Source of the DNA: Jimgerdemannia flammicorona
Taxonomy: Eukaryota
DNA length: 35,793 bases
Direction: 5' to 3'
Assembly (NCBI GenBank): GCA_003990765.1
Contig: RBNJ01000239.1
Location: 1 to 35,793 of the forward strand
The stretch's first letter is position 1. Each line of letters starts with the position of its first letter. Below, one piece after another: positions 183 through 33,184 of this stretch. The position numbers and the translations under genes are program-made. The notes under the pieces were generated by a model that saw only the letters and a program-made list of their open reading frames with translations, was not told the origin of the DNA and made no database searches.

Positions 183-746
183 GCAGCACCTCTCCGAGAT
201 ATCTCCAAGAAGGACCAACCATTCTACTGGAAAAAGGAACAACAAAAGTCATTCGACCTACTCAAGAAGGCCCTTACCGAAGCCCCTGTCCTGGTGTGAC
301 CAGACTTTGGCAAACCATTCATCCTGGCAACTGATGCCTCAGCCTTAGGACTTGGATCAATTCTGTCTCAGCAAGATGACCAGAAGAGGGAGCATGTTAT
401 CGAATATGCTAGCAAGGCCACAAATGAAATACAAGCGAACTATGGAGCCACTAAGTTGGAATGCCTAGCAGTAGTTTGGGCTATGGACCACTTCTGACAC
501 TATCTCTTGGGAAAGAGATTTGCCCTCATTACTGACCATCAAGCTCTACAATAGTTGTTCAACAAGCCAGAGCCCTCAGGAATCTTTGCTAGATGGATCA
601 TGTCTCTGCAAGAATATCAGTTCACTATTGTCTACAAGAAAGGTGCTAAGAATTCCAATGTCGATACCCTGTCAAGAATCCCATGAAACCAACAAGAAGG
701 GAAGGAGCCCCCACAAGAGAAGGCTGCTTCCTGCTCACCCAAATGA
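183..746 (+). pseudogene. pol: RT connection/RNase H domain of element A
   Basis: Frame from 183 reads AAPLRDISKKDQPFYWKKEQQKSFDLLKKALTEAPVLV*PDFGKPFILATDAS...KLECLAVVWAMDHF*HYLLGKRFALITDHQAL...NSNVDTLSRIP*...SPK*. Internal stops are CGA>TGA or TGG>TAG type. Confidence 0.93.
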
Positions 747-1961
747 ACCAAGAATTGCACCTCGCCCTCACCTGGAGTCTGCACCATAGAAGCTTCAAGA
801 AAGGAATCCAACCAGCCCACAAGTTGTTTATCCAAAGGAATTTCAAGAAATTCCAAGAAGGCAATGGTGAACTTTGGAGAGTAGAAGGAGAGCAGTATAC
901 TCGAGTTCCAAGAGAAGAAGAAATATTGAAGATCCTGACAACAAATCATGACCAAAATATACACCGAGGAATTGGTGCCACAATTGCAAGAATTAAGAAA
1001 CGATACTGGTGGCCCAAGATGAGAAAACAAATTTCAATGCACATTCAACAATGTGATACCTGCCAAAGATACCGACAAAAGCCTACCAACAGAGTACCAT
1101 AATACTGATCGCAGCACCAGCTGGAGTCTTTCAAAAACTAGGAATAGACATTATTGGACCTCTACCAGTAACCAGCTGAGGAAGATGCTACATCCTCACT
1201 ATCGAAGACCACCTGACAAAATGGCCCAAAGCCTTTGCCATCGAGACTGCTGATGCCCAGACAATTATTGGGATCCTGTATGATGAAATTTTCAGCGCCA
1301 TGGTGTGCCCAAGGAAATCATTACAGACCAAGGCTGAGAATTCGTCAACCAAGCCATGAAGACCTTTGCGAGCAACTTCAAGATTAAGCTATGACCAACA
1401 ACAACCTACCACCCACAGGCAAATGGACTCACTGAATGAATGAACCAGACCATCAAGCGAGGTCTCAGTAGAACCAGAGATCAACTAAACTGAGATATCT
1501 ACCTACCGGCAATTCTGTTCAACATCTGTACCTCTAAGGCAACCACTACCCAACAGACCCCCTTCTATTTGGTGTATGGCCAAGAAGCACAAGATCCTAC
1601 TGAACCAGTTCAGCTAGATCTGTCAAAACGAGTCACAGAAGAGATCACCCAGTTACATGACATACGCCAGCAAGTACGAGGATTTATCACCAAGGCACAA
1701 GAACGACAAAAGAGGTACTATGACCGCAAAGCCGACCTCGAATCCCTGCTCATTAGACAAAAGGTTCTGGTGTACTGTACCATCATAGAAGGAAATTGGA
1801 GTGCCAAGCTTGAACCAAAATGGGAAGGCCCCTATCTCATACACCAAGTATTCTCGAACCACACTTATCAACTCAAGACCTTGGATGGAGTTATACTCAA
1901 GACCAAGATACATCACAACCACATAAGACTCTACTACTCAAGAGAAGCAAAATGCATTTGA
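743..1961 (+). pseudogene. int: Integrase of element A (separate ORF; HHCC, DDE, GPY/F-type C-terminus, no chromodomain)
   Basis: Starts MNQEL. Motifs: HDQNIHRG...YWWPKM...CDTCQR; GIDIIGPLP; IITDQG; YHPQANGLTE; KLEPKWEGPY. Contains stops and frameshifts. Confidence 0.92.
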
Positions 1962-2569
1962 ACAATCCTGTTCACTCTGTCTGTGTTGTCTCCACTGGAG
2001 ATACGATGGACATTTCACTTGAAACTTAAGAAAGCCAACAACGTTGGAACCAGACTCAAGCCCATCCACATGACAGACATTGTTACTAAGAAATTACCTC
2101 AGATTACAAGTAATACTATTTCCAATGGGTTCGAACCCCCAGCCACGACTATGGGAGCCCTCGCCCTAGACAAGGATGGCCAGTCCTCACAAATGCACCA
2201 ACATTCTGCTTATCCCTGGAGTTAAGACCACCCAACTTTGTGTAACCCTCACCGCCGAGGACGGCTCTAATTTTGCAAGGGGCAGATGTGACATACACAA
2301 TTGACAATGGAGTACTGGTGACTGCTAAGATCAGACGATATAATGGCATGACAATCATAGACAGCCTGACCCATTAGGTGATCATCCCAAAAGAAGACAA
2401 GATGATCCGAGCCAAAATGAAGACCATATTATTTAAGGAACCATACTCCGCCTCAAGGGATCAACACCAAAGAACCAAGTACCCACCACACAATGCCTCC
2501 CATTTGCTGAACCAACCGGACCTCCCGCCACTCTACCCCTTTGCCTGGCCCAAAGATCCTGATCTTTGA
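1952..2569 (+). pseudogene. Unknown ORF between integrase and accessory ORF (about 205 codons, disrupted)
   Basis: ATG at 1952 overlaps the integrase stop (1959-1961). One frame continues to 2569, or to ~2638 if that TGA was CGA. Five internal TAA/TAG stops are explicable as C>T or G>A changes, and there is no frameshift. Confidence 0.55.
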
Positions 2570-3317
2570 AGCTATCAAGAAGGCCATCTGGCACTCAGAT
2601 ACTTCCGAACACTTGAACTTCTACACCGAGGACCTTAGACACTTCATCAACTACCAGTATATAATGACCCAACAGCTCAAAGATACTACTGAACAAATGA
2701 CCCTCTGGTATGACTATGAAATTGGACACCGCCTTTGCAATGAGACTCAAGAAGTCGACCAGGAAGACCTCATTGCCGAAATGTTAACCACTAGCTGGCT
2801 AATCAAGAGAGCCCTCCATGTCTATCAAATCTTCTGCCATATTCCCTGGGCTATAGCACACTTGCAAGGAGTAACAGCTGGCAGCCTCTCCCACCTTTCA
2901 ACTGAAGATGCTGACTGGATAGAATCTGAAGTAGCCAACGCTATTGGCAGCAACTGCATTGCCATAGGAAGCCAACAAACTGAACCTACTCAGCCAGGTT
3001 TCCACACTACCCCACTCCGAGACAACCATCAAGGTCACCTAATGAGTCTTATGGAGATATTTGAAGGACCGCCCATCACTATAGAGGCACCCGTTGGAGC
3101 TACCCCAACCACCCACCACCCCATTAGCCACAATTCACACCTCATCATTTGGAAATGGAATCAAGAAGAAGCCCAAGAAGTTCCTGTCTTTAAAGAGAAG
3201 GCCCAAGAACTCCAAGGCCCTGCCTCTGAAGAAACCCCCTCTGATACTGAAACTGATGAGTCTTCAGAAGAAGAAGAGGAGCAACAGAGAGTCTACCAGT
3301 CCTCTGTCTGCATTTAA
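2493..3317 (+). pseudogene. Accessory 'env-position' ORF of element A (unknown helical protein with acidic tail)
   Basis: ATG 2493 gives MPPIC*TNRTSRH..., open from 2511 to 3317. Homologous to the minus-strand ORF starting at 10641 and, in the VYQIF...AIAHLQGVT core, to 21070-21531 and 12388-12852. Confidence 0.8.
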
Positions 3318-11907: not shown

Positions 11908-12350
11908 TATAATATAGTAGATATATAACTATATAAGTATATCAGATTTCTATATCTTGAAAACTTGATCTTCTTTGACTCTGCAGAGTTCTTAGAATGC
12001 AGGAGTGGGTAAGTTCGAAGTATATCTACTTATAGACTTACTAGTTCCTTTGCTTTCTCTTTACTTTAAACTATTTCAATCTGAGGTTTATTCACTCTAG
12101 ATACTGGAGATATTTATACAAGTTTGCCAGCTATGGTGACTAAGTTATAATTATATTTTCTGTAAGTCATTTTCTACAAGTATAGATTCTCTATATCTGT
12201 AGAACTTCTATATTTGTAAAGTTTCTATATTTGTGAAAATATGACTACTATTTGCAAGCTATACTATATTTGAAAATCAGATTTAAGTACTATGTATAAT
12301 CAAATGTCTATTTCTCTAATTTATATTACTAATTCAGATCAACTATCACA
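11908..12350 (-). repeat. 3' LTR of element D
   Basis: Direct repeat of 18095-18540, adjacent to the PPT. Confidence 0.92.
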
Positions 12351-12387
12351 ACTTCCTTCTGAATAGATGATTCATCCCTGAAACATT

Positions 12388-12852
12388 CTATTAACTTGAA
12401 CTCCCAAGTCTCCACAAGCTATATCTCCTTATACTGTACAATCTGTACCATCATATTCTTCCAATGATATCTTCTGATTTATATAAAGTCTCCTGAAATC
12501 ACTTCTCAAAAGTGAGTTAGGGCTGGCTCATCCTCCTTAAATGACTTATATACTCATTTAGCAATAGTGATCTGAACATGGGAGAGCTGGCACTCTCTAA
12601 TCCAATCTTCTTTTCTTATTTCTGGTGCAAATTCAATAATTATCCTAACTTGAAGTATTCTTGAAGCTCTGTCTAATTCTGATAGGCCTTGAAGTGTGAA
12701 ATTTATAACAAATATGTCTATACTATACTTTGAATATTATTGAAGAATTCCTCTATTATGGGCAGCTTAGTAGTATACCATTGTCTTTCTATGGCTTATT
12801 GTACAGTACTAGTGATCTTGAGAGCTATGGCCATTCTTCATTAACTAGCCAT
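12388..12852 (-). pseudogene. Accessory ORF of element D
   Basis: ATG 12852 gives MAS**RMAIALKITSTVQ*AIERQWYTT..., colinear with 21070-21531. Confidence 0.75.
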
Positions 12853-14024
12853 AATACTTCTTGAGTCAGTTTTGGTAAATGGTAGTGGGGATGATTATGT
12901 CTAAGAGTTTTCATAGTCAAAAGGTTATTCCTTTTATATCTTATATAAGATAAGGTTCTTCTCACTTAAACTCCAGTTTTTGTGATCATAAAGCTTCTAC
13001 CATATTCTGATATATCAGGAATTTGTCTTCTATCTTGATAATCTCTAGGGACTTGTGCATTATTCCATTGTAGTACCTGTGCCTTAGTTATATAATTCTC
13101 AGTCTTCTTTCTGATTTGGTATAGTCTCTATATCTCTATATCCATATGTTTTCATATAGTATCTCTATTAGATAATAAGATTTCTTAAGAACTTTCTTCT
13201 CTAAACAGTATCTCTTAAGGGGTAAAATGGGTACTTTGTGATTAGATATCTTGAAGAATAGATAATACTATTGACAGATAGTGATTTCAGTTTTTATAGT
13301 TATTGCAGATCTTGGTAATATTATTCTTGAGAGTCTTATTTGTTCTTTCTGCTTGTCTATTTCTCTGAGAGTAATAGGCTGTAGTCTGAATATGCTGGAT
13401 CTTATACTTCTTATAGAGAACCTCAAAGAACTGGTTTATAAATTCTGTTTCTCTGTCTGTAGTTACTTATATTGGGATCTTGAACTTGCAGATAATTTCT
13501 TTATAGAAGAAATCAGCAATTGACTGTAAATTGGTTTCTTTAAGAGGTCCTGCCTCTATCTATTTTGTGAAAAAGTCTATGATAATAATGATATATTAGT
13601 TACCAGTCAAAGTTAAGAGTAGAGGGCTAATTATATCTATTATAATATATGCAAAGAGTACTAGTTCTATGTGTGCTTATCCTGGGGTCTGATTTCATTC
13701 ATCTTATTTCTGTTTCTGGCATTTATTACAGATCTTGACAAATCATCTGATGTCTTTCTCTATTCCTGGCCACTACATTATTCTTCTTACTTTATCATAG
13801 GTATTTGTTCCTTCTAGATAGCTAAGTTTGTATACTGATTTCATTACTTAATCCTTCTTGTATTTAGGTATAACTAGTAGCTTTTCTTTCTTCAGAATTT
13901 CTCCATCAGTCTCAAATTGTTTCTATATTCTGTTAATAATTATTTGTGTCCATTCTTCCAGATATTGGGGCATTTTTCATTGTCTCAGATAGATGATAAT
14001 TCTATAGTAGAGTTTCTTATTCAT
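12845..14024 (-). pseudogene. int: Integrase of element D (separate ORF)
   Basis: Starts MNKKLYY at cATGAATAA overlapping the RNaseH-frame stop. Colinear with 21521-22714. Confidence 0.88.
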
Positions 14025-17000
14025 GGTTGATTTACTGGTTAGGAGTCCTTTAGAGTGTCTATGAGAGGGTATTTGCATTAGCATTGGTTCTTTCAGGGTA
14101 GTATACAATGGTTATATTATAAGCTTGTAACTTTATAATCTATCTGACATAGATTCCTTTGGATTGTCCAGTGGTTAGCAGCTAAGTCAGAGCAGAGTAG
14201 TCTGTCTGAATAGTGAAGTGTCTTCCTACAAGATAGTAGTGGAACTTCTCTATAGCCCAGATGACTGTAAGATATTCCAACTTATAGGATTAATACTCCT
14301 TTTCAGCTCCTTGGATTTCTCAGCTGAGATATATAATGATATATTCTATTTTATCTTTCTTTTGGACCAGGACAGCTCTTAGTTCTTGGGTACTTATATC
14401 TATCTCTAGGATAAATTTCTGAGTCCAATCAAGTCTTCTGAGAATGGGTACCTGGATCAGCCTGATCTTGAGTTCATCAAATACTTTTTGTTGCCTATCA
14501 GTCCATTGAAACTTGATATTCTTCTTGTTGAGTTTGTAGATTGGGCCTGCAATATTGGAGAATCTTCTAATAAATCTGTGATAATATGAGATAAGTCTCA
14601 TAAAGACTTGGGCTTCAGTGATAGTGGTGGGCCTTAGATATGCTGCTACTGCTTGAATCTTAAGTAGATCTGTATATATTTCATCTCAATTGATGATGTG
14701 TCTAAGATAGGAGATCTTGATTTCTACAAACTTGCACTTCTTGGACTTGATATATAGGCCATACTTTCTTAGCTTCTCTATTATTTGCTGGATGTGTTGT
14801 AGATATTCTTTGACTATCTTGCTATAGATGATAACATCATTCACATAAATCATTATCCATCTTTCTATGTTATAGCAGAAGATTTTGTTCATCATTCACT
14901 GAAAGATTATTAGTATATTACATATTTCAAATAATATTCACAGATAGATATAGGTTCTATCTGGAGTAATGAAGACTGATTTTTCACTTACTGCTTCAGT
15001 GAGGTCTATTTAGTAGAACTCTGAGTATAAATCTAAGATACTGTAATACTGTACTTCATCTCCTAGAGTTATAAGGATATCACTGATGAGGTATAGTGGT
15101 TGGTGATCCTACTTCATAGTTAGGTTGAGCTTCCTGTAATTGGTGTAGAACCTTAGAGCAAATTCTCCTAGTTTGCTTCCTTTTTTTAGAGCCAATATAA
15201 CTGGTAAAGCTCAAGGACTGCTGGATTTTTTGATAATACTAGCTTCTTCCATCTACTTGATTTCTTCTCTGAGCCATTCATAATAGGCTAGTAGAATTGG
15301 TCTTGCTTTTTGATATATTGGTTCAGTGTCTCCTATATCTACATAATAATAGTAGTATAGAGTCTTTCTCTTGATATCCTTGAAATATATGACCAGAATA
15401 TTCTCATATTCATAGAGTATCTTCTTGAGTTCCTTCTTGAGTGAGAATTTATTTCTAATAGTATAGCTATGTTTATTTGTAGTTTCCTCCTTCTTGTGAT
15501 CTAGTTCTATGATCTTAGTGCTGGTGAATATTTCTCTTCCAGTAGATCTGAATCCTTTCCTTTCTCTTTCTATTTCCTCTAACTTCTTGACTTCCATGAT
15601 CTTTAGCTGAAGAACTGGGAAGATTAACATCTGTATTAATTGGTCCTTCTTCTTGATTGAAAATAGAATTATAGGATTATAGTTCCTAGCAATGAGTAGT
15701 ATTTTCTCAATATAGTCTGAATTAATAACTTCTCCTTCAATAGTAATCTCACTCTTGGCCAGGCTACTTCTTGTATTGAGGATCCTGACATAGTTCTTTG
15801 GAATGGTCATTTCCAGACCAGTTTCAAGCAGAGTAGTTGTCTGGAGCTCTAGTATAGTTTTCTCTACTGGCAATATCTATTCTAGCTGCATTCTCTGACT
15901 TATATTCTGGTAGAACTGCATTAAAATGGATTTTCTGAATCTTGACCTTGATGATTTTTTCTTCATTATTGCTGTTCTCTAAAAGAGCTAGTGATTTATC
16001 ATCTTTTTTCTTCTCCTTTTCTTACCTTGTCTGTTTCTTGAGGGTCTTCTGTCTTCTTTTATAGTAGATTTTCTTAATTCTATTAATATACTGATAGCAA
16101 TTGTCAATATTTTTCATACAGTACATCTTGATTCTGTGAGGGCAGACTCCTTGTAGTATATATCCTCCAATGATCCTTTTACACTATTCTTTCTCACTGA
16201 TTCATCTGACTTTTTTTTTTTTTTTCTGGGTAGTTACTATATTGGCTTCTTCTTGCTCACTTTCTTCTTCTTCTATCTCAGATAGTACTTCTTTATTGAT
16301 ATTGATGGGAGTTTGCATCTTCTGAGCATTGAGGTCAATTATTGCTCTGGCTTTATAAAGTCACTGGTTACCAATGAGAATGTTATAATTAGTAACATTG
16401 GTTATGATTACATTTACTGAGATAGTTGCTCTTTCAGACTTGATGGAAACATCTCAAATCTTTCCTAGAGGTGTGGCTCTTATGCTATCTACTGTAATAA
16501 ATACTAATTTAATTACTTCTTCAACCTCCCAAACTAGGCAATCTACTGCTTTCTTACTAAGAAGACATCTTTCTACTCTAGTATCAATGATGGTCTCAAA
16601 GATTCTATCTTCAATTTGACAGGTTGCATAGACAGATATCTTGTAATTATCTTTACTCTCTTCTCTAGAGTCTTCTTGAACATTATTGACTTGGTTATCT
16701 TTCTTAGTTGTCTCAGCAAGTCTATACTTTATTTGCTGTCTAAACATGGGTATTTCTGCCAGCTGACCAAAGGTTATATTGACCTTTTGTTGACTGAGAT
16801 TCTTGAAGATATCATACTTGAAAGTCTTGGTCTTGTGAAGCTTCTTCTTCTTTTCTCCTTTACTGACTGGAGTAGTTTCTCAGATGATATCTTGGACAGT
16901 CTGTTCTAGCTCTATATCTTGATCCATTTCTTCATCTTGGCTTTCCATAATAGTTTCTATCTATTTTTTCACAAGATTCTTCTTGGGTCTTTCTGGTGGT

Positions 17001-17980
17001 CTTTTGTAGGGTTGCTTGCAGACATTCTTCTTGACAGTCTCAGTGAGGTAGGCTTCCCATTCTTCTTTATCTGATTCTCCAATCTTCTTGAAGATAATAG
17101 TATTGGCCTGTTCTTATTCCTTATAATATTGCTTGACTGAGCTTTGTGCTTGGTCTTGCTCATACATTTATATAAATAGTGACCTTCTTTTCTACAAGTA
17201 TAGCAGATATCTCTCTTCTTGTCTGAGGTAGTGGCAAAGGTTCTGAACTGGGCAGCAGTCTCTTTCTCTAAATTCCTTTACTATATCTCTGAGATAGGCA
17301 GTCATTTTAGCAAACTTCTTAGCAAGTTCCTATATTATATTACTGTTTCTCTACTACTCAGTAGCTCTTGACTGAGGTGTGTTTCAATTGATCACTATGG
17401 TAGATATGTATCATACTGATTGCCTTGGGTGCTTCAATTCTAACTTCAGTAACTCTTCTCATTGTATGATCTTATAGATATCTGGCTATCTAATATCACT
17501 GGACATAGGTAACCTTTTGTACTAGGTCCAGAACTACTGATGATGAGCAGATAGTCAGAACTATCTCTGGGTGAACTTCTTTTATAAAGATTATCTTGGC
17601 TACTTGATCTTAGATAGTGATAGCATAATCTACAAGAATTATTTGATATCAGATTCTAGTATAGAATGTGTTTAGATCCTCACCCATTCCTTGATAAGTT
17701 GTATTGAGCTAATCTTTCAGAGCTTACTTAATCTCATCTGTATAGTATGTGGTTTGGAGCCAGGTCTTCTGTGTATCAGTATAGCATCAGCATCATTTCT
17801 TATATAGATTGCAGTTATAAATACTACTCTTACAGGACCTCATAGACTAAAGGGTATGAGGGCTACTTGCTGTATAGTTATCAGAGTCCTTATAGTAGTA
17901 TATTGCTCAAAATCATCAATTAAGGTGATGATTGATTCATCTGAAGTATATCTATAGAATACTCATAGTCTCATATCCAT
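14017..17980 (-). pseudogene. pol: gag-protease-Cys/His finger-dUTPase-RT-RNaseH ORF of element D
   Basis: Gag ATG at 17980; IIDTR (protease); GVCPHR...NCYQ; EGEVINSDY and KGFRSTG (dUTPase, ~15538-15954); YVND (RT YVDD); FILEIDIS (RH). Many transition-derived stops. Confidence 0.92.
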
Positions 17981-18094
17981 CTTGTCTAGATGTTTTTATT
18001 TTATTTATATAGTTGTTCAGGTGGTAGCAGTTGTTTATTGTTCAGCTTGAAAGTGAGGGATTCATTTTGAATTACTAATTAATAGGTACCAAGT

Positions 18095-18540
18095 TGTAAT
18101 GTAGTAGATGTATAACTATGTAAGTATGTCAGATTTCTGTATCTTGGAAATTTAATCTTCTTTGACTCTACAGAGTCCTCAAGATATAGAAGTGAATGAG
18201 TTTGAAATGTATCTGTCTGCAGACTTACTAGTTCTTTTACTTTTTCTTTACTTTGAACTATTTTGATCTGAGGTTTATTCACTCTAGATACTGGAGATAT
18301 TTATATAAGTTTGCTAGCTATGTATAAGGTGGCTAAGTTATGACTATGTTTTCTATAAGTCATTTTCTATAAGTATAGATTCTCTATATCTATAGAATTT
18401 CTATATTTATAAGATTTCTATATTTGTGAAAATATGACTACTATTTGCAAAACTATACTATATTTAGGAATTGGATTCAGATATTATAATCAAATATCTA
18501 TTCTCCTGATTCATATTACTAATTAAGATCAACCATTATA
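18095..18540 (-). repeat. 5' LTR of element D
   Basis: Direct repeat of 11908-12350, followed on the minus strand by ACT-TGGTACCTATT PBS. Confidence 0.92.
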
Positions 18541-19239: not shown

Positions 19240-19276
19240 TATAAAAGAAACTAAATTTACATATATTGTTATCTAT

Positions 19277-19756: not shown

Positions 19757-19771
19757 TTATATTATATAAGA

Positions 19772-20565: not shown

Positions 20566-21032
20566 TGTAATGTAGTGGATGCTTACTCTTGAAAGTACAT
20601 CAGATTTCTGTATCTTGAAAACTTGACTGTTCTGACTCTTGCAGAGTCTCTTGAAGTTGCAGGGGAGAGTGGGTGAGTTCGAAGTATATCTGCCCACAGG
20701 CTTACTAGTTCCTTTATTATCTCTTTGCTTTGAACTATTTCGATCTGAGATTTATTTACTTGAAGATACTGGGTTATTTATACAAGTTTGCTAGCTATGA
20801 GATGGTTACTGGGTTACATGGCTAAGTTATGAGTCATTTAACACTTTGCAAAATATTTTACCAGTTGTGAAATGCTATACCAAATCAAGAAGCTCGATCT
20901 TGCACTTTGCAAAATATTTAGCAAATGGCAGAATCAAGGACTGCTAACTATGTGGCTATACTACTTTAGGACTGGGTGTGATCAAGTATCTGTTCTCTAT
21001 TTTCTTCTTCCAAATCTGGCTATACCATCACA
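20566..21032 (-). repeat. 3' LTR of element E
   Basis: TG...CA termini; ~92% identical to 32718-33184 by manual count. Confidence 0.96.
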
Positions 21033-21069: not shown

Positions 21070-21531
21070 CTATTCAAACTCCCAAGCTTCAATGGTCTGT
21101 ATGGTCTTGTATTGTGCGATTTATTGCATTACTGTTTCCCAATGATATTGCCTGACTCAGTCGAAGTCTGAGGGAGTCACTCCTCACAGGTGGGCTAGTG
21201 CTGATTCATCCTCTCAGAATAGCTTATAGATTCTCTTAGTAATGGTGATCTGGGAATAGGAGAGCTGGCATTCTGCGATCTAATTTTCTTTGGTCATTTC
21301 TGAGTCTTGATTGAGTACTTGACTATGTTTGAAGTACTCTTGGAATTCATTTTGATGCTGATAGGTCTTGAAGTGTGAGATCCAAGAGAGATGAGTCTGC
21401 ACAATGCTTTGGATACTGTTATAGGACTCCTCTATAGTTGGAGGCTCAGTGGTGCACCATTGTCTCTCAATGGCTCTTTGGGCAGTGCTAGTGATCTTGA
21501 GTGTTATCACAGTACTTTTGTTACTGGCCAT
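21070..21531 (-). pseudogene. Accessory 'env-position' ORF of element E (153 codons)
   Basis: Reads MASNKSTVITLKITSTAQRAIERQW...KEN*IAECQLSYSQITITKRIYKLF*EDESALAHL*GVTPSDFD*VRQYHWETVMQ*IAQYKTIQTIEAWEFE*. The ATG overlaps the integrase stop and the ORF ends at the PPT-proximal hairpin. Confidence 0.82.
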
Positions 21532-22714
21532 GATATTTCTTGAGTTGGTTTTGGTGAATAGTGATGAGGATTATTGTGCCTGAGGGTTTTCATAGCCAAA
21601 AGGTGGTCCCTTTTATATCTTGCACCAGGTAAGGTCCTTCCCACTTGGGCTCCAGTTTTCATAACCAAGAAGCTTCTACCATATTCCAATACACTAGAAC
21701 TTTATCTCCTATCTTGATAATCTCTAAGGGTTTGTGGGTCTTTTCTGCATTCCTCCATTATAGTGTCTGTGCCTTGGTTATGTAATCTTTAGCCTTTTTC
21801 CTGATTTGGTGTAGTCTCCATATTTCTATGTCCATATGTTTCCATATGGCATCTCTATTGGAAGATAGGGTTCTCTGAGAACATTCTTCTCCAAACAACA
21901 TTTCTCAAGGGGTAAAGTAGGTACTTTGTGATTGGATATCCCAGAGAGCAGATAATGCTATTGGCAGATAGTAATCCCAGTTCTCGTAGTTATTGCAGAT
22001 CTTGGCAATACTGTTCTTGAGGGTTTTGTTGGTCCTTTCTACTTGTCCATTTCCTTGAGAGTGATATACTATGGTCTGAATATGCTGGATCTTGTACTTC
22101 TTGTAGAGAACTTTGAAGAACTGGTTCACAAATTCTGTTCCTCTATCTGTAGTTACTTGTGTTGGGGTTTTGAACTGGCAGATAATTTCCTTGTGGAAGA
22201 AATCAGTGATTGACTATGCATTGGCTTCCATAAAAGATCCTGCTTCTATCTATTTTGTAAAAAGGTCTACGATGACGATGATGTATCGGTTGCCAGTCAA
22301 AGTCAAGGGTAGAGGGCCAATTACATCCATTGCAATGTGGGTGAATGGTACTGGTTCTATGTGTGCTGATCCTGGGGTTCGATTTTGTTGGTCTTGTTTC
22401 TATTTCTGGTATTTGTTGCAGGTCTTGATGAATTGTCTGATATCTTCCTCTATCCCTGGCCACCATATTGTTCTCCTTGCCTTGTCATATATATTCGTTC
22501 CTCCTAGATAGCCAAGTTTGTATACTGATTTCATCACTTGCTCCTTCTTGTGTTCTGGTATGACTAGTAGTTTTCCTTTTTTCAGTGTTTCTCTGTCAGT
22601 TTCAAATTGTTTCCATGTTCTGTTGATAATCATTTGTGTCTATTCTTCCAGATGTTGGAGCATCTTTCGCTGTCCCAGGTATATGATAATTCCATAATAA
22701 AGCTCCTTATTCAT
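21521..22714 (-). pseudogene. int: Integrase of element E (separate ORF)
   Basis: Motifs MNKELYY...; IWWPGI...CNKYQ; YHSQGNGQVERTNKTLK; KLEPKWEGPY; ends KKYHGQ*. No chromodomain. Confidence 0.93.
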
Positions 22715-24878
22715 GATTGATTTGTTGGTTGGAGGTAGTTCAGGGTGTCCATAAGAGGGCATCTACATTGGCATTGGTTCTTTCAGAGCGATGTACAATG
22801 GTTACATTATAAGCTTACAACTTCATTATCCATCTGGCATAGATTCCTTTGGGTTGTCTGGTTGTCAGTTGCCAGGTGAGAGCTGAGTGATCCATTTGGA
22901 TGGTGAAGTGTCTTCCAGCCAAGTAGTAGTGGAACTTTTCTATAGCCCAGATGACTGCAAGGCATTCCAACTTATAGGATTCATATTCTTTTTCAGCTTC
23001 TCGGGTTCCATGGCTGAGGTATGCAATGACATACTCCACTTTATCTTTCTTTTGAGCTAGGACTGCTCCTAGTTCTTGTGCACTTGCATCAGTCTGTAGG
23101 ATGAATTCTTGAGTCCAGTCAGATCTTCTGAGGATGGGTGCCTGAGTCAGTCTGACCTTGAGTTCGTCAAATGCTTTTTGTTGTCTACCAGTCCACTGGA
23201 ACTTAGTATCCTTCTTGTTAAGTTCATAGATTAGTCCTATAATATTAGAAAATTCTCTAATAAATCTGCAATAATAGGAGGCAAGTCCCATGAAGGCTTG
23301 GGCTTCTGTAATAGTGGTGGGTCTTGGGTATGCTGCCACTGCTTGTATCTTGAGGGGGTCTATGTATATTCCATCTTGGTTGATGATGTGGCTGAGATAG
23401 GAGATCTCAATTTCTGCGAATTTGTATTTTTTGGGCTTGATGTATAGGCCATACTTTCTCAGTCTTTCCATTATCTGCTGGATGTGCTGCAGGTATTCTT
23501 CTGGTATCTGGCTGTAGATGATTACATCATCAACATAGACTATTATCTATCTTCCCATATCATAGCAGAAGATTTTGTTCATCATTCGCTGGAAACTTGC
23601 TGGTACATTGCACATTCTAAATGGTATTCATAGGTAGACGTAGGTTCCATCTGAGGTGATGAAAGCTGATTTTTCACTTGCCATGTCTGTGAGTCTGATT
23701 TGGTGGAATCCTGAGTATAAGTCTAAAGTGATGTAGTACTGTGCTTCATCTCCCAGTGTTATGAGGATGTCATTGATGAGGGGCAGTGGTTGGAAATCCT
23801 ACTTGGTAACCATGTTGAGCTTTCTGTAGTCAATACAGAGTCTTGGGGGCAAATTCTCCAGGCTTGCTGCCTTTTTTTGGAGCTAGTACAACAGGTGAGG
23901 ACCAGGGGCTGCTTGCTTCTTTAATGATGCTGGCTTCTTCCATCTGCTTGATTTCTTCTCTGAGCCATTCTCAGTAGGCTGGCGGGACAGGTCTTGCCTT
24001 CTGATAAATTGGTTCAGTGTCTCCAGTATCTACTTCATGATAGTAGTGTGGGATCTTTCCTTTGATATCCTTGAAATCTGTGGTAAGGATATCTTCAAAT
24101 TTGTGGAGTATTTCCTTGAGTTCTTTCTTGAGTGGAAATTCATTTCCAATGGTGTAGCTGTGCTTGCTTGTGTTTTCCTCCTTCTTATGCTCAAGTTCAG
24201 TGATCTTGGTATTGGCAAATACTCCTCTTCCTGTGGATCCAAATCCTTTCTTTCCTCTTTTCGTTTCCTCCAGCTTCTTAACTTTTATGATCTTTGGTTG
24301 TAGTATCAGAAAGATCAACATTTGCACCAATCGGTCCTTCTTCTTGACTGGAAATGGGATTGTAGGATTGTGATTCCTAGCAATGAGTAGAATTTCTCCC
24401 ATATAGTCTGAATCAATGACTCCTCCTTCAATTGTGATTTCGCTTCTAGCCAGGCTGTTTCTTATCTTGAGAATCCTGACATGATCCTTTGGGATGGTCA
24501 TCTTCAGTCCAGTTGTGAGTAGGGTAGTTGTCTGGGGTTCCAGTACAGTCTCTTCTACTGTAGTGATGTCCATTCTAGCTGCATTTTCTGACTTGTATTC
24601 TGGCAAGACTGCATTAGGGTGGATCTTTTGAATCTTGACCTTGATTTCTTCTTCATCATCACTGTCCTCCAGGAGAGCTGGTGGTTCATCATATTCCTCC
24701 TTCTCTTCTTCCCTGATCTGTTTTTCGAGAGCTTTCTGCCTTCTTTCCTGATGGATCTTCCTGATTCCAATGGTGCACTGGTAGCAATCATTGACATACT
24801 CCATACAGTACATCTTGATCCCATGAGGACAGACTCCTTGTGGTACATAACCTTTTGCCATCTTCTTGTACCATTCTT
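22707..24878 (-). pseudogene. pol: Cys/His finger-dUTPase-RT-RNaseH portion of element E pol
   Basis: SPWSSPVVL, YVDD at 23526-23537, FILQTDAS, KLECLAVIWA. One +1 frameshift near 23845 relative to element D. Confidence 0.95.
24229..24645 (-). other. dut: dUTPase domain within pol
   Basis: Trimeric dUTPase motifs: AARMD (AGxD), RNSLA, GGVIDSDYMGEI, RLVQM, RGKKGFGSTG. Confidence 0.95.
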
Positions 24879-24955
24879 TTTTTTTTTTTTTTTATAGTCC
24901 CTTGGACTCCATCTTTATTACTAGTCTATGAATAAGTATACAATATCACCACCCA

Positions 24956-27900
24956 CTATCTGATCCCCATTGGGGGGCCCCTCCCCACCTCTTCACAGAC
25001 AAAGACCACCCTCTCACCAACAACTCCAACTCTCCCACCACTCTGACCACAGATTTTCACCACTAAGCGGCGCCTCCGACCCCCCTGCAGCCCCCAACCA
25101 AGCCACCAGCCCATCAAGACATCCTCCATAAGGCACTGCCACCTTGATAACCAACTCCCCAAGCTCTGTCGCCTCTCCTCCTCAAATACAAATAGCCAGT
25201 GACTGGCCAGCCCAACCCAAATAGCCAATGCCCAGCCCAGAGTAATCCACTCCTCCTCTACCCCTCCTATCAATCAATCCCTCAGGTCCTCCCACCTCCC
25301 CCATATATCATCACCCCTACATCTTACCCCCAAGTAGTCCCCAATAGCCCGCCAAAAGTCTCCCAACACCTCACACTCCCCTAGCCAATATTCTGGCATC
25401 TGTACAAATCCCCCTTCCTGCCCTACATTATGGCACTCCTTGCAGTCAAAGCAGCCCCCTACAACCAGGTGTCCTGAGCAGAAGTTAAGCATTACATTTC
25501 TCTTCAGCACACACCACCAGACCACTCAGTACTTCGGCGGCATCCAATTCTTCACCATGGCACTCCAGGTCTAGACCCCATACCAGTCCCACTCCTCACC
25601 AATTCTAACTCCTTGCCAACCACTAGGCCACAGATCCTGGTCTGGTCCTCTTTGGCATTTGATGCCATCACTAATGTTGAACTCAAGTAAAGGCATATCT
25701 CCCAGAAGAATGCCATCCCATCTCCACATCGCCAGGCCCCAAGCTCTCTCCTCCTCATCCCCTCACCAGTGAATACCAATGCAGTGTGCCCCCTTGGCTA
25801 TCCCCCACCAGAAGTCTTTATATCTCAGTTGCGCAGTGTTCTGAAGCCCAACTAATGATAGAAGATCACTAGTCAAGCCTCTTGGTGATGTCCGCCTCTC
25901 CTATACCTTCTGTAGTAGAGAAACCCAGTCCCCTCCACACAACTCCACTGCCCTCCTCAGCTACCATGCCCTCAAGCAGTGTAGTCTTTTGGAGAAGTCC
26001 ACCAGCCCAAGACCATCTCTCACCACTGATAGGGACAAAGTCTCCCAACCAATCTGACTATGTCTGCCAGCCCAAATTCATCCCTTGGCCACCTTCACCA
26101 ATCTCTTCACCACCCAAGCTGGGAAGTCCAGATGATAAGCCAAATACCACAGCTTCGGCAGCCAGTATACATTCAAAATCGAGATCCTTCCTGCCAGAGA
26201 GAAGTGTCTACCCCCCCAACCCCATAGATTCTCCTCCCAAATTCCAATCCTCTGCTCCCACCACAGCCTGGGCAAAACAGACCCATAGACCGACAAATAG
26301 ATGCCCAAGTACCACACTGCCCCTCTGGTGGGGACAATTGTTCCAATAACTTCTCCGCCCACCAGACCATTGCCCAGCACCATTGTTTCACACTTGTGCC
26401 AATTCAGCTTTGCCCCAGAGTTCTCCTCATACCACTCCACTGTCTTCTTGAGCTCCTCGACATCTGCTGTCACTTCCAAACCAACCACCATATCATCTGC
26501 AAAGGCTCCAACCTTCCAGCCAACTCTATAGATAAAGAGCCCCACTATCCTCTACTGAATCCTGTCCATTAGAGGTTCCAAAGAAAGAGCATACAAAATG
26601 GGGGACAGTGGGTCCCCCTGGGGCACTCCCCTACCTAGAGGGAAAGCTACTCCTCTATGCCCATTACACACAAGCACAGCCCTACTCCTTTCCAGTAGGC
26701 TGACCATCACTGACCGAAATGGGACCAGAACCCCAATTCTATCTAATACTTTCACCAGCCAGACTCGCTGCACCCTGTCATAAGCCTTCTCCTGATCCAA
26801 GAAGATGAGATGCCCATCTAGTCTACAGGCTCGAGCACCTTCAATAACTCCATGAATCCAGGCCATGCCATCTCGAATAAGCTGACCCCCTATGAAGCCC
26901 CTCTGCTCAACACCCACAATTTGCTGGGCTACCTTCTGTAGCCATGCGACCACCACCTTAGTCACCAACTTTCTGTCCATATCAAGTAATATTATTGGTC
27001 ACCAGTTCTTCCAATCCTCTCGCCTACCCTTATTCTTATAAAGCAGCATCACCAGCCCAAGATCCTGCTCCCCCACCTATCTCCCTGACTGTAATATAGA
27101 GTCGCACATTGCTGTCATCTCCCCCAACATGCCCGGGACTCCAACCATTCACTTCCAGAAGTCCTAGGGGAGGCCATCCTCCCCAGGCGCCATACCCGAG
27201 GCTGTCATGGCAAGAATCTGGTAGATCTCATCCTCCTTTACAGGCACCACCAGGTCACCTAGTCCTTCAGCTTGTGGTGGGTGCCAATCTTCCAATGTTT
27301 GGTCAATGGCCATAGCATCCACCCCACCCTCTTTCTTACTCTACAATCTACTCCACCATGCCTTCAGCGTTCCAAGGATGTCCTGTACACCATGCACTAG
27401 TACACCATCCATGTCAAGTACCCCTTCCCACCACTGCTGTACCCTTCTTGCCTGAAGTGCCCTTGTGAGGAACTTGGAAGGCCTCTCCCCTTCCTCCAGC
27501 CCCTGCCAATGAAGCTGTGCCACCAGGCCTTGCACCCTGGACTCTTCCTCTTCCCGCAGCACCTGTTGTAGTTCCCCGACCTCCATCTTCACCCTCGTTA
27601 TTCTCCAATTCTCTTCTCCCTCCACTACTGTCAGTCTCGCCCACTCCTCCAGGAGCCTAACCAATCTAGTAGAAGCCCAATGCACTTTCTGCCTTCACTG
27701 CTTCCCAGCCACTCTGCCAGCCTCACTCCAATACATCTTAGCCATCTCTTTCATCCTCATCCACTGAACCCCAATCACGGCCCCTTCCTACTGCCAATTC
27801 ACCACCTTCATCTGAATGTCATTTGCCCATTCCTCCCACCATGACTCATCATCCAACAAGGAGGAATTTAGGTGCCAATGTCCAGGCCCATCACCACTTC

Positions 27901-28612
27901 CCCCAAAACACCCCTGTCCCAAAAGGCCCCAGTAATCTGACCACAGACACCATTCTACCTCTAGTACCTTCCAAATGTCACAGCCCCAACAGTCGGCCAT
28001 CAGAATCCAGTCAATCCTTGTCCCCAAACCTCCAGCCCAATGCGTATATACCCTCCTCTCTCCCCAGTACTCTCTACCAGCATCCATCAGTGCTCCTAGT
28101 CTTTCAACCTCCTCCCACATCACCAGCCCCCCACTCCTGCTCTCAGCACCCCGTCCTCCATCAGTTCTATTCAGCCATACATCCTGAACCATATTGAAAT
28201 CTCCTCCAAGCATATCCAACCCAGCTTCAGCAAGGATCCCACTCTCTAGGAGCCCTTTCACCCAATCTACATGCTCCCCCCACACAGCAGGGCAGTAACA
28301 GGAGCCAACTGTGACTGGCTCCCAACCTGCATGAATCCACTCACCCCAGACCAGTCTCTCTCCCCAGCTCCTCACATCCCTTATCTCCCCTCTGCCTTTT
28401 CGAACCAGAATCCCGACCTTGCTGTTCCAAATTGCCATACCACCCCATTCCTTAGTCCATTTCATCCTATCAGAGTCATCCTCGCACCTGACATCCTGCA
28501 AGAGGAAGAGATCGGCCTCCAATCCCTTCAACCAAATAAAAATGTTCCTGCATCTAACTGCGCCCCTTAGCCCATTCATATTCAAAGAAAAAATGTTGGT
28601 TGTACTGTTCAT
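24956..28612 (-). pseudogene. LINE ORF2 (APE endonuclease, RT, C-terminal Cys/His motif)
   Basis: Motifs SLNMNG, LQD, GGDFN, RIDW, SDY (SDH); LDQEKAYDRV, GVPQGDPLSP, FADD, YLGI; DCKEC...E(H/Y)WLGEC. Fragments share one frame and are broken by stops. Confidence 0.95.
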
Positions 28613-28642
28613 AATGAAATACTATTTGTTTGCAATCAATCT

Positions 28643-30673
28643 CTACTGCTCTATACCCATCTCCTCCTGTGCCTTGTCCAGATTATGTTCAGCCATCACC
28701 TCCTCCTCTTCAGCCCTCTGAGCCTCCAGTCCAGCCAACAGCTCATTCATCTCCTTATCAGCCTTCTCCTCAAACTCCTCTCTGTACTTGATGCAAGCCT
28801 CCTGCCAAAGCTGCAACCCATGATGCCTGTTCCAACAGTACTCAGCCTTCTCCCCAGCAACAACTGCTAACTCTGCCTCCCTCTCCTTGTCCACCTCATA
28901 CCCTTCCTCCTCCAGATACACTGCGAGAATTTCCACCTTCAGCACTATCACCACTCCTTCCCTCTGCAGAATTCTCGTCCAGTACTCATCACCCATCCCA
29001 CGCAAGTCCACCTCCCCTAGCTCTTCTGCCGCCAGGTTATTCATCATCCGACACATCCAAAGTAGGTTCCCCACCTCCTTCCCCCCCGGGGTCGCTGGCC
29101 TCCCTCCACCCAGCATTGTGGTGTCAGCTCCCGCACTCGCGTCCTCATCCTATACCTCCGGGACATCTACCAGTTCCTCCTCCCCAGCCACCACTACTTG
29201 GTCCCCATCCATCACCTCCGGAATGCTGAATTTCACCTGCTGGGTCCCCAGCATCATCACGTCCTCCCCAGACTTGTTCCTGGAAGCCAGGCCATGCCTG
29301 ATAAGTGGGGAAGGGGTGGGGGAATTCTCCCAGCCTTCATCCCAAACCTCCAAGGTACCGTCAGCATATGGGTTGCTAATCTTCACCTCTTGAGCCTTCC
29401 CTGTCTTTGTCCCATCATTCCCACTCCTCTCACCAGCCCAGACACTTGCTCTAGCTCCTTCTACACCCATCTTCACACTCACATCCTTCTGTGATCCACC
29501 CCCCAGTTTAGCCAGCAGATCCTTCTGTCTTTTCTGCCCCTGAGCCCTTTCCCACTGCACCTTGTCCACTTGAATCCTCTTTCCATCCACCACCTCCAGG
29601 TGCATCAACTCCTCAAAAGTCTTCCAGGCCTTAGCTCGCCATTCCACAGCTCCATCCAGCTCCTCCAGTGCTTCCAATAAATCCTCCTCCTCTTCTTCAC
29701 TTCTTTTCACCCACGTCACCTTGCACAGGAATGCTCCCCAAACTATCACTGAAGGCCAGTCCCTTGTCTTCCTGGTAGCCTCTTTCCCAGCCAGCCGAAT
29801 TCTCACATCCACATCTCCAGTCCTAAGTATGGTCCCTTCCCAGACCCTGAATCCAATATTCACCACCTCTCCATACTCAGCCATGATATCCTCCACTCTC
29901 TTTCTTGTCTCCATTGCCATCACTGTGGGTACTCCTTTCACCAGCAGTTGGACCACCCTCAGATCCCATTTCAAATACCTCGCCATCGGAACACACACCT
30001 CCCCAACCACCAACCCAACCTTCAGTGCCTCCTCCAGTGGTTCAACCTCCTCAAAACCCACCTCCACCCCCTCTAGTTCCTTCAGAAACTTCACCAAAGC
30101 TGCTTCTGCCACCTGCTTAGCGATAAGCCCCAACACCATTTTTGCCATCACTGCTAAGCCCTGGAAGCACAGCATGACCGTGAATGCCAAGATTGACTTC
30201 TTGAGTAATGGAGCCACTGTCAGTCCCATTACACCATCTGCCAAGTCCCCGGGCCTCGTGCCCTTCCCACCACTTGGCTCACCATCAGCAGTCCCATCTA
30301 GATTTTTTTCCAGATCACCCATCACACCCCCATCAGCAGTCCCTGCCCCAGCTGCAACCCCCCCAGCTCCACCCCTATGGCCCTCCAGAGAGGTACCCCC
30401 AAGAGGTTGCTGTCTGGAAGTCTTCACCGGTACCTTCCCCCCTCTCAGCCAGCTCTCCAGTCCAGCTCCCTGCTGACCCCCCTTCACTTTCTCTGCAAAG
30501 CTCACCCTGCCAGACCCTTGACCTCCAGCTCCACCCCCTCCTCCACTGCGGCCTCCCGCCAGCAGGCCACTCATACTTCCCCCCAAGCCGGGGCCTCTCC
30601 CCACTTGCTGCCATTCAAATACTCCAGGGCCACCCTGCTCAGTATGCACCTCTGGCTGCTCATTGGTCGCTAT
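28643..30673 (-). pseudogene. LINE ORF1 (Gly-rich N-terminus, RRM-like core, coiled-coil C-terminus)
   Basis: ORFs 29150-30649 and 28643-29116 are in frame across one stop. The likely start is ATA (from ATG) at 30673, and the ORF lies 30 nt upstream of ORF2. Confidence 0.85.
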
Positions 30674-30777
30674 GATACTAGTAGCTTTTCTCCAGAAACT
30701 GTGTCAAAAGTGTTGCCAAAAGATTGTGTAACCTGAATGTTACTAGAGAAAGATACTCTTCTTCATGCACTATTCTT

Positions 30778-32603
30778 CTTTACTCATCCATCCAACTTTC
30801 TTCTTCTTTAGAGTAGTCACTATATACATAAGCTTCCTCTTGCTTACTCTCTTCTTCCTCCATATCAGGCAGGACTCCTTTGTTGACATTGATGGGAATT
30901 CATATCTTCTGTCTCCAGTAGATGATCTGCATCTTCTGAGCATTGAGATCGATTACTGCCTTGGCTTTGTGAAGCCATTGATTGCCAATAAGGATGTCAT
31001 AGTTAGTGGTATTAGTTACAATTATATCTACTGGGATTGTTGCTCCTCCAATCTTGATGGGAACATCTCAAATCTTTCCCAAAGGTGTGGCTCTTGTGCC
31101 ATTAGCTGTGACAAACACCAGCTTAGTTGCTTCTTCCACATCCCAACCTAGGCAGTCCGCTGCCTTCTTGCTGAGAAGACATCTTCCTGCTCCCATATTA
31201 ATGATGGCTTCAAAGATTCTATCTTCGATTTGGCATATTACATATGCAGAGGTTTTGCAATTGTCCTCACTTTCTTCTCCTGAGTCCTCTTGAATATTAT
31301 TGGCCTCTGTTATCTTCCATCCTTGTTCCTTAGTTGTTTCGGTAAGTCCAAACCTCATTTGCTGTCTGAATGTTGGGATTTCTGTGAGCTGACCAAAGGT
31401 TGCATTGATCTTTTATTGACTGAGGTCCTTGAAGATATCATACTTGAAGGTCTTGGTCTTGTGAAGCTTTTTTTCTTTTTCTCCTTCACTAACTGGAGTG
31501 ATTCCTCAGATGATATCTTGAACTGCTTGCTCCAGCTCAATATCTTGGTCCATCTCTTTGGCTTGGCTTTGTATGGCAGTTTTCATCTGCTTTTCCACTG
31601 GGTTCTTCTTGGGTCTTCCTGGTGGTCTCTTGTAGAGTTCTTTGCGAATATCCTTCTTGGTGGTCTGAGCAGGATAGGCCTTCCATTTCTCTTCATCAGA
31701 TTCTCCGATTTCTTCAAAGGTGATTGTATTGGCCTGCTCCTTATTTTGTATAGCATTGCTTGGTTGAGCCTTGCACTTAGTTTCGCTCATACATTCATAG
31801 GAGTAGTGGCCTTCTTCTCTACAGCTGTAGCAGGTACCTTTCTTCTTGTCTAAAGTGGTGGCAAACTTCTGAATAGGGCAGCAGTCTCTTTCTCAAATTT
31901 CCTTTATCATGTCTCCTAGGTGGGCAGTCATTTCGGCAAACCTTTTGGCGAGTTCTTCCATAGGGTCACTGTTCTTTTGCTGCTCTATAGCTTTTGGCTG
32001 AGGTGTGTTTCAATTGATCATTGTAGTAGAGATTATACTGGTTGCCTTGAGTGCTTCAATTCTGACTCCTGTGACCCTTTCCATTGTATGGTCTTGTGGA
32101 TGTCTGGCTATCCAGTATCGCTGAGCATAGGTGACCTTCTGTGGCAGATCCAGAATCACTGGTGATGAGCAGATGGCTATGGCTATTTCTGGATGGACTC
32201 CTTTCATGAAGGTTGCTTTGGCTACTTGATCTTAGATAGCAGCAGCATAATCTATAAGGATTATCTGATATCAAATTCTGGTATAGAATGTGTTTGGATT
32301 CTTGCTCATTCCTTGGCATATTGTATTGAGCTGATCCTTCAGGGCTTGCTTGATCTCATCTGTATAATATGTATTATGGAGCCAGGTCTTCTGTGCTGTC
32401 AGTATAGCATCAGTATCATTTCCTGCATGAGTTGTGGCTATGAATGATGCTCTGGCAAGACCTTGTAGGCTGAAGGGCATGAGGGCTACTTGCTGTGCTG
32501 CTGTCAGGATTCTTACAGTAGTATACTGTTCGAAATCGTCAATGAAGGTGATGATTGATTCATCTGAGGTATATCCATAGAATACTGGTGGTCTTATATC
32601 CAT
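30778..32603 (-). pseudogene. gag: gag-protease portion of element E
   Basis: MDIRPPVFYG; zinc knuckle CYSCREEGHYSYEC (~31791-31832); RPPGRPKK; protease IINMGAG (DTG in consensus with D) ... DILIG. Single frame with stops. Confidence 0.93.
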
Positions 32604-32717: not shown

Positions 32718-33184
32718 TGTAACATAGCAGATGCTTACTCTTGAAAGTATGTTGGATTTCTGTATCTTGAAAACTTGACTGTTCTGACCTTCGCAGAGTC
32801 TCTTGAAGTTGCAGGGGAGGGTGGGTGAGTTTGAAGTGTATCTGCCTACAGGCTTACTAGTTCTTTTACTATCTCTTTGCTTTGAACTATTTCGATCTGA
32901 GGTTTATTCACTTGAAGATACTGGGTTATTTATATAAGTTTGCTAGCTATGAGATGGTTACTGGGTTATGTGGCTAAGTTATGAGTCATTTAACACTTTG
33001 CAAAATATTTTGCCAGTTGCGAAATACTATACTAAATCGAGAAGCTCAATCTTGTACTTTGTGAAATATTTAGTAAATGGCAGAATCAAGGACTGCTAAC
33101 TATGTGGCTATACTACTTTGAGACTGGGTGCAATCAAGTATCTGTTCCCTATTTCCTTCTTCCAAATTTGGCTATACCATCACA
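32718..33184 (-). repeat. 5' LTR of element E
   Basis: Direct repeat of 20566-21032. Confidence 0.96.

Follow-up and report, generated by a model that had tools for sequence, protein, structure and literature searches.

The 35,793-nt stretch of contig RBNJ01000239.1 from Jimgerdemannia flammicorona analyzed here, hereafter the window, carries three decayed long terminal repeat (LTR) retroelements, named E, D and A, together with passengers. E and D belong to one family on the minus strand; element A represents a divergent family, lies on the plus strand and is truncated by the window start. The elements were assigned to Ty3/gypsy (Metaviridae) because of their LTRs, which are direct and have TG...CA ends (33184-32718 and 21032-20566 in E; likewise, in decayed form, in D), their domain order (gag, protease, reverse transcriptase (RT), RNase H and integrase) and their Ty3-type DDE integrase. 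A trait that is typical of this group, and is not a taxonomic criterion, was not found, namely the release of integrase from a Pol polyprotein: in 16/16 close loci read the integrase is split from RNase H.

In element E, the RNase H frame ends with a TAA at 22709-22707 and the integrase begins with an ATG at 22714, both within CATGAATAA, with the integrase in the +1 frame. The junction in D is identical. An initial annotation of the window had proposed from these junctions that integrase is translated independently, and its coordinates for E and D were confirmed when the sequence was re-read. Its placement of the A junction at an ATGA (ATG 743, TGA 744-746; offset -1) stood insofar as this overlap is present; a second ATGA in the integrase frame, at 683-686, had gone unmentioned, and either of the two may be the one used. 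The offset is -1 either way, and locus L037 offers a natural example of the first type of ATGA. Equally unmentioned was an earlier in-frame stop which E, D and A share at one homologous codon, just past the RNase H end motif D-x-L-S-R-x-P. This codon was considered as the true pol stop and dropped: two intact relatives, L001 and L002, have an arginine codon there, and because they read through it the D/E junction at N-H-E-stop is taken as the real one.

Locus L001 shares 77% identity with P0002, the nearest integrase in the database. It has a single open frame of 1281 codons encoding Gag, protease, dUTPase, RT and RNase H, and this frame closes N-H-H-E-stop in the same CATGAATAA as E. L002 closes in the same way, but with TAG. 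The pol frame terminates on the integrase start in L001 (1281 codons), L002 (1493) and L007 (1791); gag and RT share one frame in L001, L002, L007 and L009, and in L007 and L009 both the pol and the integrase frames are open on the two sides of the junction. These loci bear on the simplest rival explanation, that the split is a decay frameshift in dead copies or an assembly error. The copies in the window are indeed full of C-to-T and G-to-A type changes, with many stops and some frameshifts elsewhere, yet the identical junction follows an open 1281-codon frame in L001, and L007 and L009 are intact on either side of it. Further, the D/E family was present in run X1, with 1065 contigs covering 30/30 bins of E; these contigs, which lose rare variants, showed four indel rows relative to E and none at the junction, and their differences from E were mostly transitions (A>G, T>C, G>A, C>T). 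We regard this explanation as already refuted by the intact relatives, in agreement with the initial annotation, which had rejected decay.

The DNA survey comprised 80 loci, assessed from three-frame read-outs and lists of open reading frames (ORFs). In the close group (L001-L028), 16 loci were read and 12 were omitted, their upstream DNA being too short; in the distant group (L029-L080), 46 of 52 were read. Across the 16 close loci, which include the near-duplicate pairs L003/L005, L008/L009 and L007/L010, stop and start overlap by up to 11 nt or are up to 2 nt apart, and the overlap types include AUGA, UAAUG/UGAUG and AUGnnUAR. The integrase is in +1 in five of them (L001, L002, L004, L013 and L026) and in -1 in the other 11, and the pol tail past the RNase H end motif, 11-29 codons long, is open up to the AUG. 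Both in the window and in the 16 close loci read, stop and start overlap or lie within the ~20-30 nt, out of frame, that characterize stop-restart. None of the close loci read had RNase H and integrase in one frame; fusions were seen only among the distant loci (7/46), in elements that resemble ordinary gypsy elements. The remaining distant loci showed a split by overlap or by a gap of at most 2 nt (7/46), a spacer (19/46), a two-stem RNA element with RNase H not seen on the part read (5/46) or another frame directly upstream of integrase (4/46), and 4/46 were left unassigned.

That the frame offset differs across loci (+1, -1 or 0) while the methionine is kept extends what had been described for the window, and bears on a second explanation, in which programmed frameshifting or read-through fuses RNase H to integrase as an ordinary Pol and the methionine is incidental. 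Fusion would solve the packaging of integrase, and in five distant loci the integrase is in the pol frame behind one stop, with only 9 nt from stop to AUG in L060 and L077. However, besides the varying offsets among relatives, no common slippery site was seen in a 19-row junction alignment, the stop lies at or before the AUG in L006, L007, L010, L014 and L015, and the methionine is kept in E and L001, where the pol stop is only 8 nt on. In L038 and L078, moreover, other cistrons stand between RNase H and integrase, and therefore no single recoding step joins the two. The varying offsets and these intervening frames speak against a frameshift of fixed direction, which the initial annotation had also rejected, and we consider a fused product very improbable.

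The order in L038 is gag-protease, a stop, RT-RNase H, a 427-codon frame, a UAAUG overlap, a 127-codon frame, an 11-nt overlap and integrase; the 427-codon frame matched NUDIX and deoxynucleoside kinase (dNK) families above the Pfam cut-off. L078 carries two short frames after RNase H and ahead of integrase; the overlaps there measure 13 and 8 nt. In L052, an upstream frame is joined by AUGA to an Mrr-like nuclease frame and this, again by AUGA, to integrase; RNase H is not on that contig, and its placement by a motif match was rejected as a chance match inside the Mrr-like frame. In L079, a UAAUG connects integrase to a preceding frame that is not RNase H. Thus, the integrase AUG overlaps whichever frame precedes it in these four loci, each of which is a single contig where some inner breaks could be decay. 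On the sequences compared, the feature kept across loci is the nearness of the integrase AUG to the preceding stop. As far as sequence can show, integrase is a separate and complete cistron with its own methionine, which would be made as a free protein; independent translation, as first proposed, is supported by the intact split relatives, the kept methionine and the intervening cistrons.

Accessory enzymes were observed in or beside distant relatives at L038 6969-8249, L038 12108-12749 and L052 521-1237, as NUDIX and deoxynucleoside kinase domains or an Mrr-like restriction endonuclease. L038 also contains a lone TGA at 5468-5473 between gag-protease and RT, with the same frame on both sides and no early methionine after it, which may be a read-through site or decay. 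The long distance from RNase H to integrase in L036 and L057 was first considered to hold intervening genes, a reading that was rejected, as it corresponds to acidic C-terminal pol tails of 250-320 residues (L036 4961-5719; L057 to 4441). These tails share a Cys/His cluster, possibly a zinc finger, and the L036 tail gave no Pfam match.

Downstream of integrase, a third frame of 153 codons (ORF3) is common to E, D and L001, the E protein being 64% identical to that of L001 (ORF 5795-6256). In E, its ATG lies in +1 within the terminal Tyr-His codons of integrase, with a 44-nt overlap; the ATG is placed in the same last conserved codons in L001, L002, L007 and L009, and one codon earlier in L003. 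A weak pattern (Tyr..Leu/Ile-Gly, then Arg-Ile/Thr-Tyr-x-Leu/Ile-Phe) is shared with ORF3 by L003, L036 and L057, and the third frames of L002, L007 and L009 are more remote. ORF3 matched no Pfam family, and only hypothetical clusters stood at the top of its protein-atlas list. Its structure model, built from 7 rows, was all helical with a predicted local distance difference test (pLDDT) value of 77; the fold search with this model gave nothing convincing (best VIA Z 4.0) and no viral match at an E-value of 0.001 or better, and no sign of a new fold is implied.

With regard to RNA signals, a hairpin ending 4-5 nt before UAAUG/UGAUG was predicted in L007 (z -4.7), L010 (z -4.1), L014 (z -2.3) and L006 (z -1.6); none of the other 12 junctions folded fell below z -1.0. 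A peptide similar to E-R-L-P-K-x-G-P-F-L ends Pol just before the stop in P0250, P0253, P0254 and P0255 and in L006, L007 and L014-L016. Since this terminal peptide overlaps the hairpin, either the peptide or the RNA may be the conserved thing. The covariation in the hairpin pairs is suggestive at most.

The spacers of a distant subclade contain a 40-nt two-stem element made up of an outer stem, an unpaired A-rich stretch and an inner hairpin; the latter has a loop of three bases and one bulged A. Over 7 rows, 84/84 cells were paired and 13 of them had changed on both sides, which 0/500 shuffles matched; slid controls were at most 43% paired, and RNAalifold without a supplied structure returned 6/13 of the pairs as compensatory. 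A small middle stem drawn in the element never varies and is unsupported. Searching 85 sources with a model of the element yielded nine strong matches. Seven were the training rows, one was L063, which is nearly identical to L057, and one was L070; in L070, which was outside training, the pairs are kept with new letters and the element ends 5 nt before the integrase AUG. Most members have it 3-12 nt before the AUG (~33 nt in L100), and no Rfam match was found in 8 sources. A covarying element in a non-coding spacer between pol stop and AUG would suit internal ribosome entry, in which structured RNA brings ribosomes to the integrase AUG on the full-length RNA regardless of upstream termination. 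Nevertheless, at only ~40 nt and absent from D, E and L001, it fits the structured-spacer clade only, and the stop on the AUG in 16/16 close loci would be left unexplained, so that we find internal entry improbable.

A third subclade (L034, L041, L048, L049, L058 and L068) has a common pyrimidine-rich stretch before the AUG and no consensus fold. Such a stretch could be a promoter or a branch-point-like signal for a subgenomic RNA of integrase, which would start at a promoter inside RNase H or arise by splicing of a leader onto an acceptor that precedes the AUG; the overlap would then reflect no more than compaction. The spacers in 19/46 distant loci agree with this insofar as overlap is not required lineage-wide. 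The context of the start is divided, with a purine at -3, compatible with scanning, in 12/19 aligned starts (judged by eye) and a pyrimidine in 7/19. On the other hand, the 19-row alignment shows no common AG upstream of the AUG, with none at all over ~50 nt in E and L002, and the chains of three or four overlapped cistrons in L038, L052 and L078 would need one RNA each. We therefore consider a separate integrase RNA unlikely, and the comparative evidence leans towards reinitiation. The same alignment showed no common Shine-Dalgarno-like stretch; prokaryote-style coupling was set aside on this ground and in view of the eukaryotic context, with a long interspersed nuclear element (LINE), a pentatricopeptide repeat (PPR) gene and LTRs.

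Protein comparisons were also performed. The best solved match of the family integrase profile was Ty3 Gag-Pol 7q5b (3e-57, profile 26-412), followed by foamy virus integrase (1e-38). A search with the E integrase (X at stops), limited by length, returned 95 proteins of 219-699 aa. The methionine was invariant in 60/60 aligned integrases (59 of the 95 matches, picked for full coverage, plus the query), which is not counted as independent evidence, given that gene callers start at methionine and that the search was length-limited. Without the length filter, among the 150 matches listed, the 9 with at least 40% identity were all of at most 448 aa, and those longer than 1000 aa reached at most 34% and aligned only from query residue 27 on. 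For the RNase H of A, the best 15 of 35 longer pol relatives lacked an integrase domain and ended 3-25 residues past the end motif, a few of them being on short contigs and possibly cut; integrase domains were present in 15 of the remaining 20. Distant integrase matches included the named Rhizophagus irregularis protein P0090 (29%). A soil metagenome with a small word share was the only sequencing run listed, and no RNA run appeared in that listing. The lineage is probably fungal, with an early-diverging fungus as the probable host. Scans of viral and prokaryote genomes gave distant integrases at 42 loci, the junction being read only in L099 and L100. These two and other loci of the prokaryote-genome scan are eukaryote-type retroelement contigs filed in bacterial metagenome-assembled genomes, which most likely reflects binning contamination.

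Altogether, we favor, with a probability of roughly 60%, a polycistronic Ty3/gypsy RNA that is read by termination-reinitiation, because of the open tails, the AUGA/UAAUG geometry, the lack of a fixed frame offset, the runs of successively overlapping cistrons and the structure next to the AUG. E, D and A would accordingly represent dead copies of a lineage whose genomic RNA carries, in the order seen in intact relatives, a long Gag-protease-dUTPase-RT-RNase H frame, integrase and ORF3. After terminating at the RNase H stop, some ribosomes would remain bound to the RNA and begin again at the overlapping or adjacent AUG. Such a restart may hold integrase at a lower level than Gag; a lowered integrase dose is proposed because Gag and RT share one frame. 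To get to the particle or the cDNA, free integrase would need to bind RT, Gag or RNA, possibly aided by synthesis on the same RNA. Subclades would differ in their cis signals, with the hairpin 4-5 nt before UAAUG in one, the covarying two-stem element of the spacer in another and none detectable in the D/E clade.

Several observations weigh against termination-reinitiation. Firstly, the integrase start, Met-Asn/Asp-x-Glu/Asp, itself yields stops in the other two frames, so that an overlap is cheap once the tail is open, and part of the pattern could have arisen through compaction by itself. Secondly, 19/46 distant loci have a spacer of 9 to ~260 nt instead of an overlap, and these longer or in-frame spacers fall outside the spacing of stop-restart; integrase is in the pol frame in five of the 19 (L034, L050, L060, L071 and L077), where read-through is possible. 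The split may have arisen once or several times among these loci, which need not form a single clade. Thirdly, no notable fold was found at D/E-type junctions (z +1.1 in L001, +0.5 in L002, -0.8 in L013 and +1.1 in E), alignment folding of the N-H-E-stop clade gave no consensus pairs, and z was below -2 in only 3/16 folded junctions. The hairpin, in 7 hand-picked rows, changes on both sides in 5/13 pairs, a score that 13/500 shuffles reach. The two-stem model had no match in the window and is confined to the distant subclade, where the element lies in the non-coding spacer downstream of the pol stop (L036 group), while termination upstream ribosomal binding sites (TURBS) sit upstream. Finally, the overlaps of ORF3 with integrase, 29-68 nt, go beyond the ~20-30 nt that TURBS tolerate in the available text of PMC10275272.

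The coordinates of the features are collected in Table 1. The 5' and 3' LTRs of E are ~92% identical across a 300-nt stretch. Its gag/protease part, judged by eye, is collinear with ORF 774-4619 of L001 and matched zf-CCHC above and gag-asp_proteas below the Pfam cut-off. In element A, an extra ATG at 1952 overlaps the integrase stop by 10 nt.

Table 1. Features of elements E, D and A in the window.
Feature	Position	Strand	Remarks
Element E, whole	33184-20566	-	LTRs, gag with zinc knuckle, protease, dUTPase, RT, RNase H, integrase, third frame
E 5' LTR	32718..33184	-	467 bp, TG...CA ends
E primer-site-like stretch	TGG at 32714	-	after 5' LTR
E gag (zinc knuckle) and aspartic protease, decayed	30750..32603	-	ATG 32603; inner end approximate
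LINE (non-LTR) inserted in E between protease and dUTPase	24874..30750	-	5' end approximate; passenger, outside the junction
E dUTPase-RT-RNase H, decayed	22707..24873	-	Pfam dUTPase, RVT_1, RT_RNaseH; last codon TAA 22709-22707
Earlier stop in E RNase H tail	22742-22740	-	decay stop; sense codon in intact relatives
E stop/start junction ATGAATAA	22707..22714	-	8-nt overlap, integrase in +1; identical in L001 at 4612-4619
E integrase cistron	21488..22714	-	408 codons, single frame, 9 decay stops, 0 frameshifts; rve match
E ORF3	21070..21531	-	153 codons; function not assigned
E 3' LTR	20566..21032	-	purine tract just before; (AT)n on both flanks
Element D	11908..18540	-	E family, ~79% identical to E, more decayed, both LTRs; 5' end approximate
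Earlier stop in D	14052-14050	-	decay stop; D tail has a second stop
D stop/start junction ATGAATAA	14017..14024	-	ATG 14024, TAA 14019-14017; integrase in +1
D ORF3	12390..12841	-	frameshift-broken; ends approximate
A RNase H and tail	300..746	+	upstream part outside the window
Earlier stop in A	684-686	+	homologous codon
A junction	683..746	+	two ATGA overlaps in integrase frame, 683-686 and 743-746, 60 nt apart, both -1
A integrase cistron	743..1961	+	decayed, frameshifts; Integrase_H2C2 match
A downstream coding region	1952..3317	+	broken; open piece 2511-3317; no family match

The LINE nested in E, which gave Exo_endo_phos and RVT_1 matches, comprises a 517-codon ORF1-like frame, endonuclease, RT and a poly(A) tail (~24874-24894); a fragment of the same LINE family lies near 9755-10270 (74% identity over 252 nt). 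An LTR stretch of 55-66 nt is common to A (3830-3895) and the D/E family (20733-20799) at ~80-90%, with coding regions that are far apart, and may be a conserved LTR core, perhaps a promoter or poly(A) signal, or the result of an LTR swap. AT-rich AATTT/AAATC arrays with long inverted repeats (18880-20530, 33240-33500 and 11170-11570) and inverted LTR pieces (e.g., 19397-19462 and 33742-33889) resemble solo or nested elements whose internal repeats are palindromic. An array of short palindromic repeats of the GATTCGAATCC type at 60-165 breaks A upstream of RNase H, and three tandem units of ~60 nt, open in two frames, lie at 3480-3760 between its last frame and the LTR. A PPR-repeat gene exon at 35057-35793 on the minus strand continues, at the end of the window, into a long poly(C) stretch; this stretch and a poly(A) run at 33920-34040 may be assembly artefacts. 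A search with the PPR sequence gave no match, and its protein-atlas clusters were generic eukaryotic PPR ones.

Known Ty3/gypsy elements have one Gag-Pol frame or separate gag and pol frames, as far as they are covered in the available parts of PMC2864245, PMC5911963 and PMC7175516, and in the latter two recoding in LTR elements is described only between gag and pol, integrase being cut out by protease. In contrast to these elements, Ty3 included, the lineage described here has gag and pol fused and integrase and ORF3 as separate cistrons. Its dUTPase between protease and RT is as in the fungal PosPlaTy3-5 (PMC2864245, in the portion available), and dUTPase-bearing fungal Ty3/gypsy elements for comparison are PosPlaTy3-5 and Tmt1 (excerpts of PMC2864245 and PMC6431247). 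The literature searched, whose coverage left subscription journals, Repbase and GyDB outside, yielded no account of an LTR element in which integrase has a gene of its own that is overlapped with the preceding one.

Reinitiation after long frames is reported, in the accessible text of PMC10275272 and PMC5972666, for caliciviruses, influenza B, pneumoviruses, Cryphonectria hypovirus 1 (CHV1), Helminthosporium victoriae virus 190S (HvV190S), SART1 and LINE-1, with no LTR element named there. As in HvV190S and in CHV1 (UAAUG), the elements studied here have a long upstream frame and an overlapped stop/start, probably read by fungal ribosomes; unlike these two-cistron RNA viruses, they are DNA-integrating LTR elements with at least three cistrons and several overlap geometries. 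The victorivirus analogy drawn initially is thus apt for the overlap, but no common RNA structure was found at the D/E junction. For HvV190S an upstream pseudoknot is proposed (PMC10275272, same extract), to which the hairpin before UAAUG in L006, L007 and L010 may be likened, although here only hairpins were predicted, by pseudoknot-blind folding. In SART1 (UAAUG) and LINE-1 (63-nt spacer), a downstream enzyme frame is reached by stop-restart, according to the available portion of PMC5972666. Both overlap and spacer junctions occur here as well; however, SART1 and LINE-1 split ORF1 from a whole endonuclease-RT frame, whereas here the split is inside pol, between RNase H and integrase. With the TURBS of caliciviruses and influenza B, defined in the part consulted of PMC11921876 as an element upstream of the stop, our loci share a stop and start within 20 nt and a two-stem layout of outer stem, unpaired conserved stretch, inner hairpin and short linker to the AUG. 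They differ in lacking UGGGA, in the position of the two-stem element downstream of the stop and in its absence from the D/E junction. The hairpin in L006, L007, L010 and L014, by its position, lies upstream of the stop. UGGGA was not present in L001 4253-5347, including 350 nt upstream of the junction, nor seen in the 19 aligned junctions; the motif is adapted to the 18S rRNA of mammals (PMC11921876, same part), and any analogue in fungi is expected to look different.

A broader proposal, which we put forward tentatively and regard as possible though doubtful as a whole, is that of a widespread soil-eukaryote LTR lineage run as an operon by stop-restart, with Gag-Pol, accessory enzymes (NUDIX, deoxynucleoside kinase and Mrr-like nuclease), free integrase and ORF3. 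The 40-nt two-stem RNA would play the part of a TURBS in fungi, retaining ribosomes after termination. Integrase would enter the particle outside the polyprotein. In practical terms, pipelines that expect a continuous pol would mis-annotate such elements as broken or integrase-less.

In the textbook view, the integrase of an LTR retroelement travels into the particle within Gag-Pol. If a large natural lineage has gag and RT fused and yet makes its integrase separately, two questions arise, namely how a eukaryotic ribosome restarts after a frame of 4-5 kb and how free integrase finds its cDNA. Most of what is known about reinitiation comes from a few viruses and two non-LTR elements. The loci described here may serve as a panel of natural junctions, which include AUGA, UAAUG, overlaps of 8-11 nt and spacers with or without structure, and they also provide a short RNA element with covariation.

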